In this document: positions 1,046-16,550 of the stretch, in pieces | Layout of the letters: every line of letters starts with the position of its first letter | How positions within the stretch are numbered: the first letter of the stretch is position 1 | NCBI GenBank assembly: GCA_041492755.1 | Contig: JBGPXN010000004.1 | Location: forward strand, 1,373-65,372 | DNA length: 64,000 nucleotides | Direction: 5' to 3' | Source of the DNA: Candidatus Methylomirabilia bacterium | Lineage (GTDB): Bacteria > Methylomirabilota > Methylomirabilia > Rokubacteriales > CSP1-6 | Notes under the pieces: generated by a model | What the model saw: only the letters and a program-made list of their open reading frames with translations | Databases searched by the model: none | Told to the model about the DNA's origin: nothing | Position numbers and translations under genes: made by a program

Positions 1046-1158
1046 GTCGTCGACCCCATCAGGGCTGACGCCGCGCGACCTTCGCGGCGCCGAACCTTGA
1101 CGGAGAGCCCGCTCCTCGGGCTATGATGCAGCCCACTTCCTGGGAGGAGATGAGAATC

Positions 1159-3144
1159 ATGGCGGACGCCCCGCGCAGTAGTGCAACGGCCGAGCCTTTC
1201 CGGACGACCGATCAGCCGGCACCGCCGTGCATCCTCGTGATTTTTGGCGCTTCCGGTGACCTGACCAAGCGCCTGCTCATGCCCGCTCTGTACAATCTGG
1301 CCTGCGACGGCCTGCTCTCCAAGAAGTTCGCGCTGATCGGCACCGCGATGGACGACCTGACCACCGAGCAGTTTCGTAGCAAGATGTCGACCGACATCAA
1401 GCAGTTCTCGACGCGCAAGACCTTCGACGAGGACGTCTGGAAGGACCTCGCCGGCCGCTTGCACTACACCCCCGGCAAGTTCGACGACGTCAAGGCGTAC
1501 GAGAAGCTGCGCGACATCATCAAGCGGCTCGACGCCGAGCAGGACACCGGCGGCAACATCGTCTACTACTTCGCGACGCCGCCGGTGGTGTTCGGCATGA
1601 TCTCCGACCACCTCGCCAAGGTCGGCATGATCGCCGGTGATCGCGGCTGGCGGCGGGTCATCGTCGAGAAGCCGTTCGGCGCCGACCTGCCGTCGGCGAT
1701 GGAACTGAACAAGGTCCTCCTCAAGAACTGGAAAGAGGAGCAGATCTTCCGGATCGACCACTACCTGGGCAAGGAGACCGTGCAGAACCTCCTCGCCTTC
1801 CGCTTCTCCAACGGGATCTTCGAGCCGTTGTGGAACAAGGCCCACATCGACCACATCCAGTTCACCGTCTCGGAGATCGTCGGCGTGGAGGGACGCGGCG
1901 GCTACTACGAGCGGTCGGGCGTGCTGCGGGACATGATGCAGAACCACATGTTCCAGATGCTGGCCTACCTGTGCATGGAGCCGCCGTCCTCCTTCAAGCC
2001 GGACGCGATCCGGAACGAGAAGTCGAAGGTCCTCGACGCCGTGCGGGTGATGACTCCCGACGAGGTCAGGCAGAACACCGTGCGCGGGCAGTACGGCCCG
2101 GGCAAGAAGGCGGACGGCAAGGACACGGTCGGCTACCGCGAAGAGTCGGACGTCAATCCCCAGTCCCGGACGGAGACGTTCGCGGCCGCGAAGCTCTTCA
2201 TTGACAACTGGCGCTGGGAGGGGGTGCCGATCTACCTCCGCTCCGGCAAGGCGCTCTGGCGGCGCGGCACGGAGATCCTCGTGCAGTTCAAGAAGGCGCC
2301 CGAGGTCATCTTCCGCGACACGCCGGCCGTGCGGAAGCTGGAGTCCAACCAGATCATCTTCCACATCCAGCCCGACCAGGGGATCGAGCTGCGCTTCCAG
2401 GCCAAGACGCCGGGCCCGACCATGGCGCTGCAGAAGGTGAACATGCGGTTCGACTACAAGGAGGCCTTCGAGGCCTCGCGCGGCACCGGCTACGAGGTGA
2501 TGATCTACAGCTGCATGGCCGGCGACGCGATGCTCTTCTCCCGTAGCGACCTCGTGGAGACCGCGTGGCGGATCGCGCAGCCCATGCTCGACCTCTGGAG
2601 CAAGACGCCGGCGGACGAGTTTCCGAACTATCCGGCGGGGTCGTGGGGGCCCAAGGCATCGTTCGATCTCATCGAGCGCGACGGCCGGCGGTGGATGGAG
2701 GCCGTCAACCGCGGCGTGATCGAGAAGGTGCCGCTCTTCGCCGGCTGCGACGAGGTGTTCCATCACCAGCTCGCCATGGTGCTCAAGCCCGACGTCTTCG
2801 CGCCGGGGGATTTCATCATCAGAAAGGGTGACGTCGGGCAGGAGATGTACTTCGTGGTCGGCGGCGACGTGGATGTGCTCGACGGCGACAAGGTGCTCGC
2901 CACCCTGGGCCCGGGCAGCAACTTCGGTGAGACAAGCCTGCTGCTTTCCGAGAAGCGCACCGCGTCCATCCGCGCCAAGACCTACTGCGACCTGTTCGTG
3001 CTCGACAAGGCCGATTTCAACAAGGTGCTCCGCGATCATCCGCAGTTCGCCAAGTCGATTCTCGAGATCGCGCAGACGCGCTACAAGGTCAGCGTCAAGG
3101 CCGACCAGGCCTTCGACAAGACCGTCAGCCGCTTGATGGAGTAG
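1159..3144 (+). CDS. zwf: glucose-6-phosphate dehydrogenase fused to a C-terminal cyclic-nucleotide-binding domain
   Basis: GGGAGGAG RBS then ATG 1159. G6PD motifs FGASGDLTKR and RIDHYLGKE. From about nt 2728 a cNMP-binding fold: VPLFAGC..., GDFIIRKGD, FGETSLL..KRTASIRA. Confidence 0.9.
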   Translation: MADAPRSSATAEPFRTTDQPAPPCILVIFGASGDLTKRLLMPALYNLACDGLLSKKFALIGTAMDDLTTEQFRSKMSTDIKQFSTRKTFDEDVWKDLAGRLHYTPGKFDDVKAYEKLRDIIKRLDAEQDTGGNIVYYFATPPVVFGMISDHLAKVGMIAGDRGWRRVIVEKPFGADLPSAMELNKVLLKNWKEEQIFRIDHYLGKETVQNLLAFRFSNGIFEPLWNKAHIDHIQFTVSEIVGVEGRGGYYERSGVLRDMMQNHMFQMLAYLCMEPPSSFKPDAIRNEKSKVLDAVRVMTPDEVRQNTVRGQYGPGKKADGKDTVGYREESDVNPQSRTETFAAAKLFIDNWRWEGVPIYLRSGKALWRRGTEILVQFKKAPEVIFRDTPAVRKLESNQIIFHIQPDQGIELRFQAKTPGPTMALQKVNMRFDYKEAFEASRGTGYEVMIYSCMAGDAMLFSRSDLVETAWRIAQPMLDLWSKTPADEFPNYPAGSWGPKASFDLIERDGRRWMEAVNRGVIEKVPLFAGCDEVFHHQLAMVLKPDVFAPGDFIIRKGDVGQEMYFVVGGDVDVLDGDKVLATLGPGSNFGETSLLLSEKRTASIRAKTYCDLFVLDKADFNKVLRDHPQFAKSILEIAQTRYKVSVKADQAFDKTVSRLME

Positions 3145-10734: not shown

Positions 10735-10993
10735 CGCTCGCTCGGCACCGTCAGCCGCGACAGCGGCCTTGCCCACATGTCCACAGTTGTCCCCAACGCG
10801 AAAACCACACGGCTTGGTGCGGGCTCGCAGCCGGATAGCGGAAAAAGTGACGGAGTATCGGCACGCGCGAAGCGGCCCCTGAAATTCTCACGGAGCGACG
10901 CGAGAGAGTTGGTGCCGAGCCTCGCGCCGCCGCCTGCGACGCGGGCGCGCGCGTCGTTGACGTACCGGGTACGGACGCCTACCGTCCAGCGCC

Positions 10994-11383
10994 ATGGACA
11001 AAGCCACGGAAGCGCGGACAACCACGGAAGCGCGGATTCAAGCGGAGCTCGACGCCGAGCTCGACGCCGTGCTGGTGCGTCTGCGGCAGCTCGGGCAGGC
11101 GATCGCGGTCGAGGCCGAAACCACCGACAGCCTCGACCTCGCTGGCGATCTCTTCGACAACGCGCAGGCGGTGGAGACGCGCGAGCTGGGTCAGCTCGGA
11201 GTCGCGCGGCTCACCGAGCGGGCGCGTCGTCTGAAGACGGCGTTGGTCCGGCTGCAGGAGGGCGTCTACGGTCGGTGCGAGGAATGCGGGAAGCCGATCC
11301 CGCCGGCGCGGCTGCGCGCCATCCTCGGCGTCGCGACGTGCGTGGTGTGCCAGGAGGCGCTCGAGAGAGCCGGCGGCCGCTGA
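10994..11383 (+). CDS. TraR/DksA-family C4 zinc-finger protein
   Basis: C-terminal CEECGKPIPPARLRAILGVATCVVC (C-x2-C-x17-C-x2-C) after a coiled-coil region. Confidence 0.8.
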   Translation: MDKATEARTTTEARIQAELDAELDAVLVRLRQLGQAIAVEAETTDSLDLAGDLFDNAQAVETRELGQLGVARLTERARRLKTALVRLQEGVYGRCEECGKPIPPARLRAILGVATCVVCQEALERAGGR

Positions 11384-11456
11384 GCGACCTCGCGGGTGGC
11401 ATTCCCGCGCGCCATGCCGTATCCTGCTCGGAACCCCGCGTTATGAGGAGGAACGG

Positions 11457-11702
11457 ATGCCGCCGTCGGTGACCGTCTACAGCAACGTCGGGTGAGGGCC
11501 CTGCCATCGCGCGATGGAGTATCTATCGCGAAAAGGTGTCGCTTTCACCGAGAAGAACGTCGGTAAGGACCCGCAGGCCCGGCAGGAGCTGATGGAGCTC
11601 GGGACGCTGTCGTTGCCCGTGATCCTCATCGGTGACGCGCGCTTGACCGGCTTCAACCCCGGTCAGATCGACGCGGCGCTCACGGCGGCCGGCATCGGAT
11701 GA
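11457..11702 (+). CDS. glutaredoxin-like protein with probable selenocysteine (U-G-P-C redox motif, TGA at 11493..11495)
   Basis: GAGGAGG (11445-11451), 5 nt, ATG 11457, then MPPSVTVYSNVG-TGA-GPCHRA, which runs in frame into track ORF 11514..11702 (MEYLSRKGVAFTEKNV...). The track ORF alone lacks strand beta-1 and the CxxC motif. Confidence 0.7.
11504..11517 (+). promoter_or_regulatory. candidate SECIS-like hairpin 3' of TGA 11493
   Basis: CCATC-GCGC-GATGG (5-bp stem, 4-nt loop) starting 8 nt after the TGA. It is short, so support is weak. Confidence 0.35.
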
Positions 11703-12118
11703 GTGACGCGCCGGCCGGCCCCTCGCAGGCGAACATCGACAAGATGTGGGCGTACGCGCGCAAGTACGCCGAGAAGTCCGGCACCCAGCTGCATCCCGAT
11801 CGCAACGTGACCCAGACGGTGGCCGAGGGGCTCGCGCGCCACATCGAGCTGGTGGGCAAGCCGCTGTGCCCCTGCGTCTTCTATCCCGATCCCAAAGAAG
11901 AGGCGAAGCAGCGGCGATGGGTCTGCGCGTGCGACGAGATGCAGAATTACAAGTATTGCCACTGCCTGCTGTTCGTGAACAAGGACGGTGTTCCCATCAC
12001 GGAATACCTGCCCGAAGGCCACGAAGGCCGCGAAGCGTACGGCATCGTCAAGGATCCCAACCCTGAGCGGGGTCGAGGGATGGCAAAGGTGCGCGAGCGG
12101 CAGCAGGCGTCCGGCTAG
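11699..12118 (+). CDS. ferredoxin:thioredoxin reductase catalytic-subunit-like protein
   Basis: Exact Cys spacing CPC-X16-CAC-X8-CHC (CPCVFYPDPKEEAKQRRWVCACDEMQNYKYCHC). Its ATG overlaps the glutaredoxin-like stop (ATGA). Confidence 0.85.
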   Translation: MSDAPAGPSQANIDKMWAYARKYAEKSGTQLHPDRNVTQTVAEGLARHIELVGKPLCPCVFYPDPKEEAKQRRWVCACDEMQNYKYCHCLLFVNKDGVPITEYLPEGHEGREAYGIVKDPNPERGRGMAKVRERQQASG

Positions 12119-12306
12119 CTGCGGCTCGCTGGCCGGCGCCCCCGCAACGTCCAGGGGGGCGGGATCCCCAGGCCCCCCGGGTGGCCGTCTCGGCGCCCCA
12201 ATGACTAGTTGTTGACAGCCTGAGACTCCTGTAAAGTACGTCCACTTTTTTGCTGTGACCGTCCGCTCGATCCGTCCCGTTCGACCTGTGAGGGAGGGAA
12301 GACGAC

Positions 12307-13923
12307 ATGCGCTCACGACGTTTCCTGCAAGGCCTCCTCCTCTCGTTGTTCACGCTGACCTGGGTCCTCGCGCCGCCGGCCCCGGCCGGCGAAGCCCAGA
12401 CACCGAAACGTGGAGGCACGCTCCGTGTGAGCTACGGCAACGAGATCGCCAACCTCGATTTTCACACCGCGCCGGGCTACGAAATGATGTGGGTCGCCAT
12501 GAACGTCGGCTGCGGCCTCATCGACATCACGCCCGACGGGAAGTTCGTCGCGGACGCCGCCGACTCGTGGACGGTCTCGCCAGACAGCCTCCTGTATACC
12601 TTCAAGCTCAAGAAGAACGTCCTTTTCCATGACGGCACGCCGGTCGACGCCGCCGCCGTGAAATTCAGCATCGACCACCTCATGGACCCGAAGACGAAGT
12701 CGGGCATGCGGAGCTTCTACGACTCCGTGCACAGCGTCGAGGTTATGGATCCCCTGACCGTCCAGGTGCGCATGAAGCAGCCCTACGCCTTCTTCCTGCA
12801 CATGCTCGCGGCCTACCGCACGGGCCTCATCCTCTACTCGCCGACGGCGACGCAGAAGTTCACCATCGAGGACCGGAAGCAGGGCAAGCCGGGCGCGGTG
12901 GTGGGCTGCGGTCCCTTCAAGCTGGTCGAGTGGGTGAAGGGCAGCCACCTGGCCATGGAGCGGTTCGACAAGTACTTCGTGCCGGGGCGGCCGTACGTGG
13001 ACCGCATCCTCATCCGCGTGATCAAGGATCCGGTCACCGAGATGGCGGCCTTCAAGAATGGCGAGATCGACTTCATCGCTTCGTTCTCGCCCGAGCACGT
13101 CGACACCATGAAGGCGCAGGTTCCGAAAGCCCAGATCATGACCGGCAAGGAAACGACGCCCATGGTGGCGGCGATGAAGGTCACCGTCCCCAAGGACGGC
13201 AAGCCGATGTCCAAGGAGCGCGCGCCGCACCCGCTTTTCGGTGACCTTCGCGTGCGCAAGGCCGTCGGCTGCTACGGGATGGATCGCAACGAGATCGTGA
13301 AGATCGCCTTCAAGGGCAAGGCGACGCCCTGGCTCGGGATGGCGCCTCCGGGGACGCTGGAATCAGTGGACCTCAACGCCATGTGCCCCTACGACCCCGC
13401 GAAAGCCAAGGCGCTGCTGGCCGAGGTGGGCTACGGCCCGCAGAAGCCGCTGACGTTCGAGGTCATGGCCGACACCGAGAAGTCGGTGTTCAACGTGATC
13501 GCCACCGTCATCAAGGAGCAGATGGCGCGGATCGGTGTGACGGCAAACATCCGGGTGCTGGACAAGGTGAGCTGGATGAACACGACCCTGCAGGACGGGC
13601 CGTGGGACATGTACGTCGAGGACCTCCTGTCGCTGCTCACGATCGACAGCAACGGGTACCTGTCGAACAGCACGTCGACCTGGAGTCACCCGCGCCACAA
13701 CGACACGAAGGTGGACGACTACTACGCGCGGTACGCGAGGGAGATTGACCCGGCCAAGCGCAAGGCCATCGGCAAGGAGCTGCTGGAGTACATGGCCGAC
13801 AAGATGTACTGGAACAACGTCTCGGGCTCGCCGTTCTACATGGTCGCCCAGCCGTGGGTGAAGGGCTACACGTACAACGCCGAGTTCGAGGTGCACTGGG
13901 ACACCGTCTGGCTCGACAAGTAA
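12307..13923 (+). CDS. ABC transporter substrate-binding protein, family 5 (peptide/nickel, DppA/OppA-like)
   Basis: Signal peptide MRSRRFLQGLLLSLFTLTWVLAPPAPAGEA. 538-aa SBP-5-type sequence (GGTLRV, WTVSPDSLLYTFKLKKNVLFHDG). Confidence 0.9.
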   Translation: MRSRRFLQGLLLSLFTLTWVLAPPAPAGEAQTPKRGGTLRVSYGNEIANLDFHTAPGYEMMWVAMNVGCGLIDITPDGKFVADAADSWTVSPDSLLYTFKLKKNVLFHDGTPVDAAAVKFSIDHLMDPKTKSGMRSFYDSVHSVEVMDPLTVQVRMKQPYAFFLHMLAAYRTGLILYSPTATQKFTIEDRKQGKPGAVVGCGPFKLVEWVKGSHLAMERFDKYFVPGRPYVDRILIRVIKDPVTEMAAFKNGEIDFIASFSPEHVDTMKAQVPKAQIMTGKETTPMVAAMKVTVPKDGKPMSKERAPHPLFGDLRVRKAVGCYGMDRNEIVKIAFKGKATPWLGMAPPGTLESVDLNAMCPYDPAKAKALLAEVGYGPQKPLTFEVMADTEKSVFNVIATVIKEQMARIGVTANIRVLDKVSWMNTTLQDGPWDMYVEDLLSLLTIDSNGYLSNSTSTWSHPRHNDTKVDDYYARYAREIDPAKRKAIGKELLEYMADKMYWNNVSGSPFYMVAQPWVKGYTYNAEFEVHWDTVWLDK

Positions 13924-16001: not shown

Positions 16002-16550
16002 TCAGGCTCTCTGGAGCTTCGGCATGACCTCGCGGGCGAACGCGCCGAGTTGCTCGAGCATGACCGACTTCGGCGTGCCCATGTCGACCTGCTCTTCGAA
16101 CAGCTCGCGGTTGGCGTCGGCGTCCAGCATGGGGGCGCCGAACGTCTCGACCTCGCGGGTGTGATAGCCGCGGCCCACCCCGAAGATGGTGCGGCCGCCG
16201 GTCAGGATGTCGGCGGTGGCGTAGTCCTCGGCGAGGCGCAACGGGTGCCACATCGGCGTGATGTTGAAGCCGCAGCCGAATTTGAGCCGCCGCGTCACGT
16301 GCGAGAGGTGGACGGCGACCATGAGGATGTTGGGGATCGCCTCGTAGCCCTCGTGCTGGAAGTGATGCTCGGCGAGCCAGAGCGCGTAGTACCCCAGATC
16401 GTCCATCGTGCGGGCGAGGGCCTCGGTCTTCTCGAATACGGACGCCAGGTGCTCGTTCGAGTACCGCCGCTCGTTGGCCGGGGTGGCGTCCTGGCCCATG
16501 TCGCCGAGGTCGACGTGGCCGGCATAGAGGGTGGAGAACTTGGTGATCAT
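16002..16550 (-). CDS. luciferase-like (LLM) flavin/F420-dependent oxidoreductase, abnormally short (apparent internal in-frame deletion)
   Basis: The N-terminal ~155 aa are typical LLM (YYALWLAEHHFQHEGYEAIPN, GGRTIFGVGRGYH). The sequence then jumps to a typical LLM C-terminal tail (GTPKSVMLEQLGAFAREVMPKL). 182 aa against my expected ~330-370. Confidence 0.6.
   Translation of the reverse strand: MITKFSTLYAGHVDLGDMGQDATPANERRYSNEHLASVFEKTEALARTMDDLGYYALWLAEHHFQHEGYEAIPNILMVAVHLSHVTRRLKFGCGFNITPMWHPLRLAEDYATADILTGGRTIFGVGRGYHTREVETFGAPMLDADANRELFEEQVDMGTPKSVMLEQLGAFAREVMPKLQRA

Follow-up and report, generated by a model that had tools for sequence, protein, structure and literature searches.

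In a 64,000-nucleotide stretch of DNA from a Candidatus Methylomirabilia bacterium (GenBank assembly GCA_041492755.1, contig JBGPXN010000004.1, positions 1,373 to 65,372 of the forward strand; hereafter the window), two adjacent genes encode a glutaredoxin (Grx)-fold redoxin with a selenocysteine (Sec) in its active site and a homolog of the catalytic subunit of ferredoxin:thioredoxin reductase (FTR), here called FTRc. The genome context suggests that they form a co-expressed two-gene module in which electrons would pass from ferredoxin to FTRc and from FTRc to the seleno-redoxin, the reductase most likely serving to recharge the selenoprotein; we put the probability of this reading at roughly 0.65. 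The gene pair recurs in ~110 independent loci, where the pair alone is conserved and the flanking genes vary. Its main elements in the window are the following.

11446..11451, forward strand: Shine-Dalgarno sequence AGGAGG, 5 nt upstream of the redoxin ATG, read off the sequence
11457..11702, forward strand: Sec-containing Grx-fold (NrdH/YruB-like) redoxin of 81 codons, from translation and Pfam
11699..11702, forward strand: ATGA overlap of the redoxin stop and the FTRc start, read off the sequence
11699..12118, forward strand: single-subunit FTR catalytic-subunit homolog (FTRc) of 139 residues, Pfam family PF02943

Linkage of the redoxin and FTRc genes

The linkage was surveyed from both sides. 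The search from the FTRc side used one genome per species and gave 80 loci, whose neighbours were analyzed with TGA read through. In all 32 loci of the Methylomirabilota type (L007-L038) the redoxin gene directly precedes FTRc in the same orientation, and every one of these 32 redoxins carried TGA, giving the active sites UGPC, UGGC or UGAC. A further seven loci, of the Tectomicrobia/Entotheonella type, had a Sec redoxin on the opposite strand; in six of them the two genes are convergent, with the redoxin ~90 nt past the FTRc stop, and in the seventh it lies at 2.4 kb. The remaining 41 loci are considered below with the alternatives. From the redoxin side, a metagenome scan with the redoxin alignment also yielded 80 loci, and FTRc was directly downstream in 74 of them, or 74 of the 76 that were informative. 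Four contigs ended within 140 nt of the redoxin and were uninformative, and the other two loci, which lack FTRc, encode a U-T-G-C paralog. The only genuine Cys form of the redoxin that was recovered also sits directly upstream of FTRc.

A conserved linkage of FTRc homologs to Grx-like genes was the observation on which the original prediction had been made to depend, and it was recovered in two arrangements and two phyla with the other neighbours varying. The accompanying proposal to survey FTRc neighbourhoods for Sec or Cys was also carried out and gave Sec nearly throughout, with one Cys form. Because the linkage outlasts a change in orientation, the other neighbours have turned over and the spacing is operonic, the survey points to a direct donor-acceptor relation between the two proteins. 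The predicted overlap of the FTRc ATG with the stop codon of the U-x-x-C protein was confirmed at 11699..11702. The overlap, from which translational coupling had been read, is limited to some lineages: across 82 co-directional loci the estimated median gap between stop and start was 13 nt, and 4-nt overlaps were found in 6 of these 82 loci from other species, besides the window itself.

Other observations were made on the same loci. The second Sec paralog, U-T-G-C, has the same hairpin sequence and was found in two metagenome loci (L170:1707-1949 and L172:51-293) with no FTRc within ~1 kb downstream; the copy on L170 is flanked by two open reading frames (ORFs) of the MFS transporter type. 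Two public proteins, P0159 (62 aa, labelled NrdH-redoxin, from Rokuibacteriota) and P0126, look like members of this U-T-G-C subgroup. The pair also occurs in the Methylomirabilota-type layout on a contig labelled Candidatus Acidoferrum (L027) and in the Entotheonella-type layout on one labelled Gammaproteobacteria (L040); their FTRc proteins are 72-77% identical, and the explanation is either mis-binning of these contigs of metagenome-assembled genomes (MAGs) or horizontal transfer of the module. In Dehalococcoidia, a 64-aa ORF that converges with the FTRc gene was considered as a truncated selenoprotein; it was rejected because it lacks a CxxC motif, an upstream extension and any Pfam match.

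Selenocysteine at codon 13 of the redoxin gene

The redoxin frame starts at the ATG at 11457 and is open through an in-frame TGA to the stop TGA at 11700-11702. It reads MPPSVTVYSNVG-TGA-GPCHRAMEYLS..., with the active site U13-G-P-C16 in the motif N-V-G-U-G-P-C. Codon 13 was TGA in all 86 distinct sequences around the site, drawn from 118 related loci, and in 80 of 80 metagenome redoxin loci; the Cys16 codon, by contrast, alternates between TGC and TGT among the 86 sequences. In this same set codons 5-12 hold VTVYSNVG through synonymous changes. The Y8 codon is TAC in 75 sequences and TAT in 11 with the amino acid unchanged, and N10 (AAC/AAT) and G12 (GGC/GGT/GGG) are likewise invariant as amino acids, so that each of these three positions uses two or three synonymous codons. 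This variation before the TGA implies that the region 5' of it is translated in the redoxin frame. Redoxin genes stop with TAG or TAA in 53 of 82 loci, from which it follows that these organisms do not generally use TGA as a sense codon. In alignments with the 7c10 and NrdH structures, Sec13 takes the place of the first Cys of the CxxC motif. The Sec codon and the hairpin that follows it have these parts.

11493..11495, forward strand: UGA selenocysteine codon, residue 13, from conservation, hairpin and homolog alignment
11502..11538, forward strand: stem-loop of the selenocysteine insertion sequence (SECIS) type, predicted fold of -19.4 kcal/mol, 39-species alignment
11511-11518 with 11522-11529, forward strand: upper helix of 8 bp, beginning 16 nt after the UGA
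11519-21, forward strand: apical loop GUA, starting 23 nt after the UGA
11502-11505 with 11535-11538, forward strand: lower helix of 3-4 bp, part of the SECIS-type stem-loop

The hairpin of the window at 11511-11529 is GCGAUGGA-GUA-UCUAUCGC. In the alignment of 39 distinct species the eight pairs of the upper helix were formed in 100% of cells. One pair shows compensatory change, from U-A to C-G in 14 of the 39 species; this switch turns a codon ATG or GTA into ACA along with Leu CTA into CTG, which would otherwise be a synonymous choice. Two further pairs of the upper helix change on one side only. The GUA loop is conserved too: its G and U never vary, and a single species departs from A at the third base. 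The pairing register was specific, since 99.3% of cells paired in the proposed register and 20-47% when the 3' partner was slid by 1-3 columns. Folding of the window sequence alone gave a z-score of -1.64. Bacterial SECIS elements are characterized by a defined spacing from the UGA and by a G in the apical loop, and the predicted geometry of this hairpin fits that model. A comparison of the whole window with Rfam returned nothing at or above any family's gathering score, and a permissive scan of 11400-11760 at E<=10 gave no SECIS or other relevant match.

Because the TGA is invariant, the upstream codons vary synonymously and the hairpin is paired with a compensatory change, we conclude from the comparative sequence evidence that the TGA at codon 13 is a true Sec codon and not a stop. 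Sec decoding is to be expected in this phylum, given that a Methylomirabilota MAG has 63 predicted selenoprotein genes and that the phylum is reported to be selenoprotein-rich (PMC13188914). No tRNA genes were found in the window, and a Pfam scan of 20 window proteins revealed no member of the Sec machinery.

The sole genuine Cys form has TGC at codon 13 and comes from a forest-soil contig of ENA (L087:57-299, protein P0121). It retains an intact hairpin, GCGGTAGAGTATCTATCGC, and is followed 15 nt downstream by the start of FTRc. The intact hairpin suggests a very recent replacement of Sec by Cys, or else a sequence variant. Four proteins with W, S or R at the Sec position (P0122, P0124, P0125 and P0126) were set aside as unverified, being probably translation artefacts of the source pipeline. 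A Cys relative with the active site CPAC (P0216) is 53% identical to the redoxin; no FTRc is called in the 5.1 kb around it, and a 242-aa ORF adjoins it. A hybrid redoxin on a 666-nt ENA contig (L177:190-420, P0131) has the N-terminal third of a classical CPYC glutaredoxin, matches the redoxin family closely from ...RKGVPFTERNVGKDP... onward and has FTRc 44 nt downstream. Probably the assembly created P0131 as a chimera, with the junction in the conserved KGV region; the alternative is a real recombinant Cys replacement.

The redoxin resembles NrdH and YruB

With U read as C in the search, the redoxin matched the Pfam family Glutaredoxin (PF00462) at E=2.4e-14 and 53.7 bits, above the cutoff of 22.9, which assigns it to this family on sequence grounds. 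Its top NCBIfam matches were YruB (TIGR02196; score 71.9, under the cutoff of 88.55) and NrdH (TIGR02194; 54.2, under the cutoff of 85.75). By these scores the redoxin resembles YruB and NrdH but falls outside both as a curated member. The match to the Uxx-star glutaredoxin-like selenoproteins (NF041212) reached 42.6 bits, below the cutoff of 66, with the Sec at residue 13 of 81. The nearest solved structures were 7c10 and NrdH proteins, the NrdH matches having E values of ~1e-10 to 1e-12, and sequence comparison placed the redoxin nearer to NrdH than to Grx3. Where E. coli Grx3 has GGYDD, a glutathione-binding motif, the redoxin has LTGFNP.

The textbook example of a Grx-fold protein that depends on NADPH-thioredoxin reductase, and not on glutathione, for its reduction is NrdH. 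The redoxin shares with NrdH and YruB the small Grx-fold protein of ~80 aa. It differs from NrdH in its active site, U-G-P-C in place of C-V-Q-C, in a gene that is not beside those of ribonucleotide reductase, and in its predicted reductase, which would be an iron-sulfur enzyme and not a flavoenzyme.

Public gene calls cut the redoxin of the window to 62 aa, starting at the internal Met20 (11514-11702) and lacking the active site. The public members of the family (P0123, P0127-P0240) similarly start at Met20 or later and are products of 50-67 aa without the active site. One of these fragments is labelled "NrdH-redoxin" and the others "glutaredoxin" or "hypothetical protein", and many have no Pfam hit. 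Since the annotations cut off the active site, selenoproteome counts omit this protein, and through the same systematic mis-annotation redox reconstructions for these phyla miss it as well.

A single-subunit homolog of the FTR catalytic subunit

FTRc matched the Pfam family FeThRed_B (PF02943) at E=2.3e-23 and 82.7 bits against a cutoff of 22, and its assignment to this family is likewise made from the protein sequence. The Cys pattern C57-P-C59, X16, C76-A-C78, X8, C87-H-C89 can be read directly from the gene as originally described, and the protein aligns without gaps, the six Cys and the His included, to FTRc of Arabidopsis and Synechocystis (1dj7, 2pvg and 7bzk; E ~1e-20). The replacement of the second CPC by CAC, noted at the outset, was confirmed: among 65 aligned homologs the six Cys and the His are invariant and CAC stands in place of the second CPC throughout. 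PF02943 was the sole Pfam match on the 139-aa protein, in agreement with the earlier statement that a rubredoxin domain is missing; none was found in FTRc. In NCBIfam the only match was to the "FtrB family double-selenoprotein" (NF041072), with a score of 42.1 against a cutoff of 160. The features of the protein are located as follows.

11867..11875, forward strand: C57-P-C59, aligned to 1dj7 and 2pvg and invariant in 65 homologs
11924..11932, forward strand: C76-A-C78, which is CPC in plant and cyanobacterial FTRc; CAC is invariant in the clade
11957..11965, forward strand: C87-H88-C89, from the alignment, invariant in 65 homologs
11987..12115, forward strand: C-terminal extension, residues 97-139, ~40 residues, missing from plant and cyanobacterial FTRc

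By homology with known FTR structures, Cys57, Cys76, Cys78 and Cys87 are presumed to be the ligands of the cluster. We take Cys57 and Cys59 to be equivalent to Synechocystis Cys55 and Cys57, a cluster ligand and the exposed redox-active Cys. The redox-active disulfide would presumably be Cys59-Cys89, with Cys89 interacting with the cluster and His88 as the catalytic His. An AlphaFold model of FTRc built from the 65 homologs had a pLDDT of 93.6 and a pTM of 0.85. In Foldseek it matched 7bzk_A, 1dj7_A, 2puk_A and 2pvd_A with a root mean square deviation of 1.0-1.2 A over 83-89 columns, 42-44% identity and a probability of 1.00.

Residues 97-126 of the C-terminal extension are highly conserved, with G97, P99, T101, E102, L104, P105, H108, E109, G110, R111, Y114, G115, D119, P122, G125 and R126 invariant in the 65 homologs. 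Mean pLDDT was 97 for the block of residues 101-120 and 90 for 121-130. The FTRc chains of the PDB align only to residue 96-97, and the structure 4tpu, a ferredoxin:disulfide reductase (FDR), reaches residue 123. The extension might substitute for the variable subunit, or it might provide a surface for docking or dimerization. The pattern G-x-P-x-T-E-x-L-P-x-x-H-E-G-R…Y-G…D…P…G-R is common to the whole clade of CAC-type FTRc proteins.

The nearest named homologs of FTRc are from Candidatus Rokubacteria and Methylomirabilota. Soil and sediment metagenome contigs carry an identical FTRc with the same neighbours, and the gene called upstream of it there is a 62-aa Glutaredoxin fragment. Eight FTRc homologs of 158-191 aa were examined as Grx fusions and rejected, being merely N- or C-terminal run-ons.

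Comparison with known systems

FTRc resembles the plant and cyanobacterial catalytic subunits (1DJ7, 2PVO and 7BZK), with which it shares the Pfam family, 42-44% identity in the core and six Cys and one His at equal spacing. By analogy the chemistry is predicted to be common to both: a cluster beside a disulfide, two one-electron steps and a mixed disulfide. The window protein differs from these in having CAC in place of CPC, in the conserved extension of ~40 residues, and in the gene linked to it, which encodes a Grx-fold selenoprotein and not a thioredoxin. It also differs from heterodimeric FTR in that no gene for the FTR variable subunit (FTRv) is adjacent, although FTRv itself was not searched for.

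A natural fusion of the two folds is known from Desulfotalea psychrophila (7PWE, a Grx/FDR fusion released in 2022), in which a Grx fold is joined to an FTRc-like [4Fe-4S] disulfide-reductase fold. Its depositors call it no more than a glutaredoxin fusion. The Grx domain is N-terminal and the reductase occupies residues 86-173 of 196 (7pwe_A), which corresponds to the gene order in the window. By analogy, this protein is the clearest precedent, of the Rosetta-stone type, and supports the pairing of an FTR-type enzyme with a Grx-fold redoxin. The fusion is one polypeptide, whereas the window has two ORFs in different frames with a stop/start overlap. The reductase of 7PWE is ~25% identical to FTRc (E=1e-3 with the single sequence, 1.6e-5 with the profile), and its Grx domain is not detected by the redoxin-family profile at E<=1.

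The FDR of Methanosarcina acetivorans (4TPU, 173 aa) is also FTRc-like, has no variable subunit and is from outside the phototrophs, and its alignment covers part of the FTRc extension, to residue 123. It differs from the window protein in its C-terminal rubredoxin domain and in having Tyr where the window FTRc keeps the His of FTR (CHC), and it is 24% identical to the window protein in the Foldseek alignment. Prakash et al. (2018, J Biol Chem) reportedly found that FDR reduces Trx5 and a Grx-like methanoredoxin in vitro.

Glutaredoxins and FTRs that contain Sec are both known. Sec-glutaredoxins (UxxC), for example those of Geobacter and Clostridium, are a listed selenoprotein family (PMC9312934, PMC13188914) and are described as glutathione-linked and as occurring in a limited number of species (PMC13188914). 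The window redoxin has in common with them the Grx fold, Sec as the first residue of the CxxC, a SECIS just downstream and an exchange of Sec and Cys within one family; it differs in belonging to a NrdH/YruB-like family that is nearly always Sec and is genomically tied to FTRc. Sec-containing FTR was first seen in ocean metagenomes (PMC2398784). The FtrB double-selenoprotein (NF041072) likewise places selenium within a relay of the ferredoxin/FTR type, but in that protein both redox-active Cys of the reductase itself are replaced by Sec, whereas the window reductase is all-Cys and the selenium is in its partner. The combination of an all-Cys FTRc with a linked, near-obligate Sec NrdH-like redoxin was not found in the searchable literature; it may have been described earlier in key papers outside that literature. 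The module thus extends the known relay from FTR or FDR to a redoxin, with selenium in the acceptor, and is not a new category.

A proposed ferredoxin-to-selenoprotein relay and its alternatives

In the proposed mechanism, Sec would be inserted at UGA-13 by means of the SECIS hairpin 16 nt downstream. FTRc would act as a single-subunit ferredoxin:disulfide reductase of the FTR type, with a [4Fe-4S] cluster on Cys57, Cys76, Cys78 and Cys87, a Cys59-Cys89 disulfide and His88. Reduced ferredoxin is predicted to give FTRc two electrons, one by one. Cys59 would then attack the Sec13-Cys16 selenenylsulfide of the redoxin and open the bond, giving a mixed Cys59(S)-Se(Sec13) intermediate like that of FTR with thioredoxin, which the second electron would resolve. 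The reduced selenol/thiol redoxin could in turn reduce disulfides, sulfenates or peroxidase-type enzymes encoded elsewhere. In complexes of FTR with thioredoxin the mixed disulfide is formed by the N-terminal residue of the CxxC, and Sec13 occupies this exposed N-terminal position. From what is known of synthetic seleno-Grx3 analogues, a selenenylsulfide of low potential may be matched to a low-potential, ferredoxin-driven reductase. The identities of the two genes, the Sec codon with its SECIS and the conserved linkage are shown; the binding of the cluster, the ferredoxin donor, the passage of electrons to the redoxin by way of FTRc and the targets of the redoxin are the parts of this scheme that we infer.

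Several observations weigh against this reading. In the other 41 FTRc loci, whose proteins are 56-72% identical, no Grx-, NrdH- or TrxA-like ORF was present within 4 kb with TGA read through. These loci belong to Nitrospira, Dehalococcoidia/Chloroflexota and Actinomycetota, and their FTRc proteins keep both the CAC motif and the C-terminal extension. Blind clustering of ORFs around loci without a Grx was swamped by spurious ORFs of high GC content and was replaced by called-gene contexts and phmmer; the called-gene contexts of one Dehalococcoidia and one Myxococcota representative likewise had no adjacent redoxin. Because the same FTRc clade occurs without the redoxin in several phyla, FTRc is not restricted to it; it does not need the redoxin and probably also reduces ordinary thioredoxins. 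The claim that the redoxin is the dedicated partner of FTRc therefore stands as regards partnership, which the conserved linkage supports, but "dedicated" was too strong. The U-T-G-C paralog without FTRc indicates that such Sec redoxins can be served otherwise, the convergent genes of Tectomicrobia are not co-transcribed, and the parts of the window that were examined yielded no gene for a ferredoxin, a target or the Sec machinery.

The genes might instead encode a split two-subunit enzyme, a stable complex that corresponds to the Desulfotalea Grx/FDR fusion without being fused. The Sec-redoxin would be its output site, whose direct substrate would be a disulfide of low molecular weight, a selenium compound or a single specific protein. 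Such a complex would accord with the equal order of Grx and FDR in 7PWE, with the very tight spacing and the stop/start overlap in several lineages, with Sec in nearly every copy found and with an FTRc that lacks a variable subunit but has a conserved, confidently modelled extension, which could be an interface. We nevertheless regard it as unlikely, as the convergent layout in Tectomicrobia and the single locus at 2.4 kb speak against obligatory stoichiometric co-translation and FTRc of the same clade stands alone in several phyla. The kinship of the 7PWE Grx domain with the redoxin is limited to the fold, there being no profile match at E<=1, and its FDR domain is merely ~25% identical. Linkage could also arise between genes that are not donor and acceptor, if FTRc reduced thioredoxin, NADPH thioredoxin reductase reduced the Sec-redoxin and the two shared a stress regulon. 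FTRc homologs without an adjacent redoxin are indeed common, NrdH-type redoxins classically use NADPH-thioredoxin reductase, and the U-T-G-C paralog exists without FTRc. Against this stand the survival of the linkage through same-strand and convergent rearrangement and full turnover of the neighbours, the usual sign of direct coupling, its retention in 74 of 76 informative loci, and the existence of a natural fusion of both folds; a shared regulon appears to us a still less probable explanation than a split enzyme.

It was also considered whether the redoxin ORF is a pseudogene, or a 62-aa protein from Met20, with the TGA a plain stop or a sequencing error. Every public caller annotates just a C-terminal fragment of 50-62 aa, and the single-sequence z-score of the hairpin is merely -1.64. 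The TGA is nonetheless invariant in 86 sequences while the Cys16 codon varies, VTVYSNVG is retained at codons 5-12 via synonymous changes, a Shine-Dalgarno sequence precedes the ATG at 11457, the hairpin shows a compensatory change, and a 62-aa fragment would lose the CxxC active site together with the first beta-strand. On this evidence the pseudogene reading is effectively refuted; the conserved TGA, the constrained upstream codons and the hairpin with its compensatory change mean that a pseudogene, which had been named as a way in which the original prediction might fail, was not borne out.

Implications of the proposed relay

Bacterial single-subunit FTRc homologs are widespread, and to our knowledge no physiological acceptor has been established for any of them. 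Comparative genomics now names one candidate, a selenoprotein. If the ferredoxin-to-redoxin relay is correct, the cleavage of disulfides by the iron-sulfur chemistry of FTR would extend to selenenylsulfides, and the first Se-S substrate of an iron-sulfur disulfide reductase is predicted. The relay would likewise offer a rationale for why the redoxin has stayed Sec in ~120 loci with a single Cys exception, and it would provide a compact system of two genes (81 and 139 residues) in which the ferredoxin-driven reduction of thiols and selenols could be studied or engineered.

A broader version is put forward tentatively, as its combined claims fall somewhat short of an even chance. Methylomirabilota and Tectomicrobia would possess a ferredoxin-powered selenium relay containing the first FTR-type enzyme with a physiological Se-S substrate, and Sec would be kept with almost no exceptions because its selenenylsulfide, of lower potential and quicker exchange, could be recycled efficiently by a ferredoxin-driven reductase alone. 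In the same joint reading the relay would serve these bacteria of soils and sponges as a major cytoplasmic reductant system that depends on neither glutathione nor NADPH, and would be a natural, unfused equivalent of the Grx/FDR protein.

Flanking and other genes of the window

The 5' neighbour of the pair encodes a DksA/TraR zinc-finger protein and the 3' neighbour an ABC substrate-binding protein. These genes were rejected as members of the module, as they recur in 0 of 45 other genome loci and in 1 metagenome locus. Neither neighbour is FTRv, though no search aimed at the FTR variable subunit was made. FTRv is reported to be exclusive to oxygenic phototrophs (PMC9025218). The statement that no thioredoxin gene is adjacent held up, with no TrxA-like ORF anywhere in the window in six frames. 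Because a promoter and terminator scan of 10900-12400 returned nothing, the operon boundaries are drawn from spacing only.

Two further genes of the window were noted. An ORF of 182 aa at 16002-16550 on the reverse strand resembles luciferase-like monooxygenases and covers positions 20-132 of 314 in the profile; on L001, too, the gene is called in this short form. The ORF was considered as a selenoprotein and rejected, as the frame past its TGA is not a plausible protein, and it is a truncated or internally deleted gene. At 1123-3144 on the forward strand, a glucose-6-phosphate dehydrogenase (G6PD_N, G6PD_C) ends in a cyclic-nucleotide-binding domain (residues 558-639, E=1.2e-19). Such a fusion is unusual, and it suggests that cyclic nucleotides control the entry step of the oxidative pentose-phosphate pathway.

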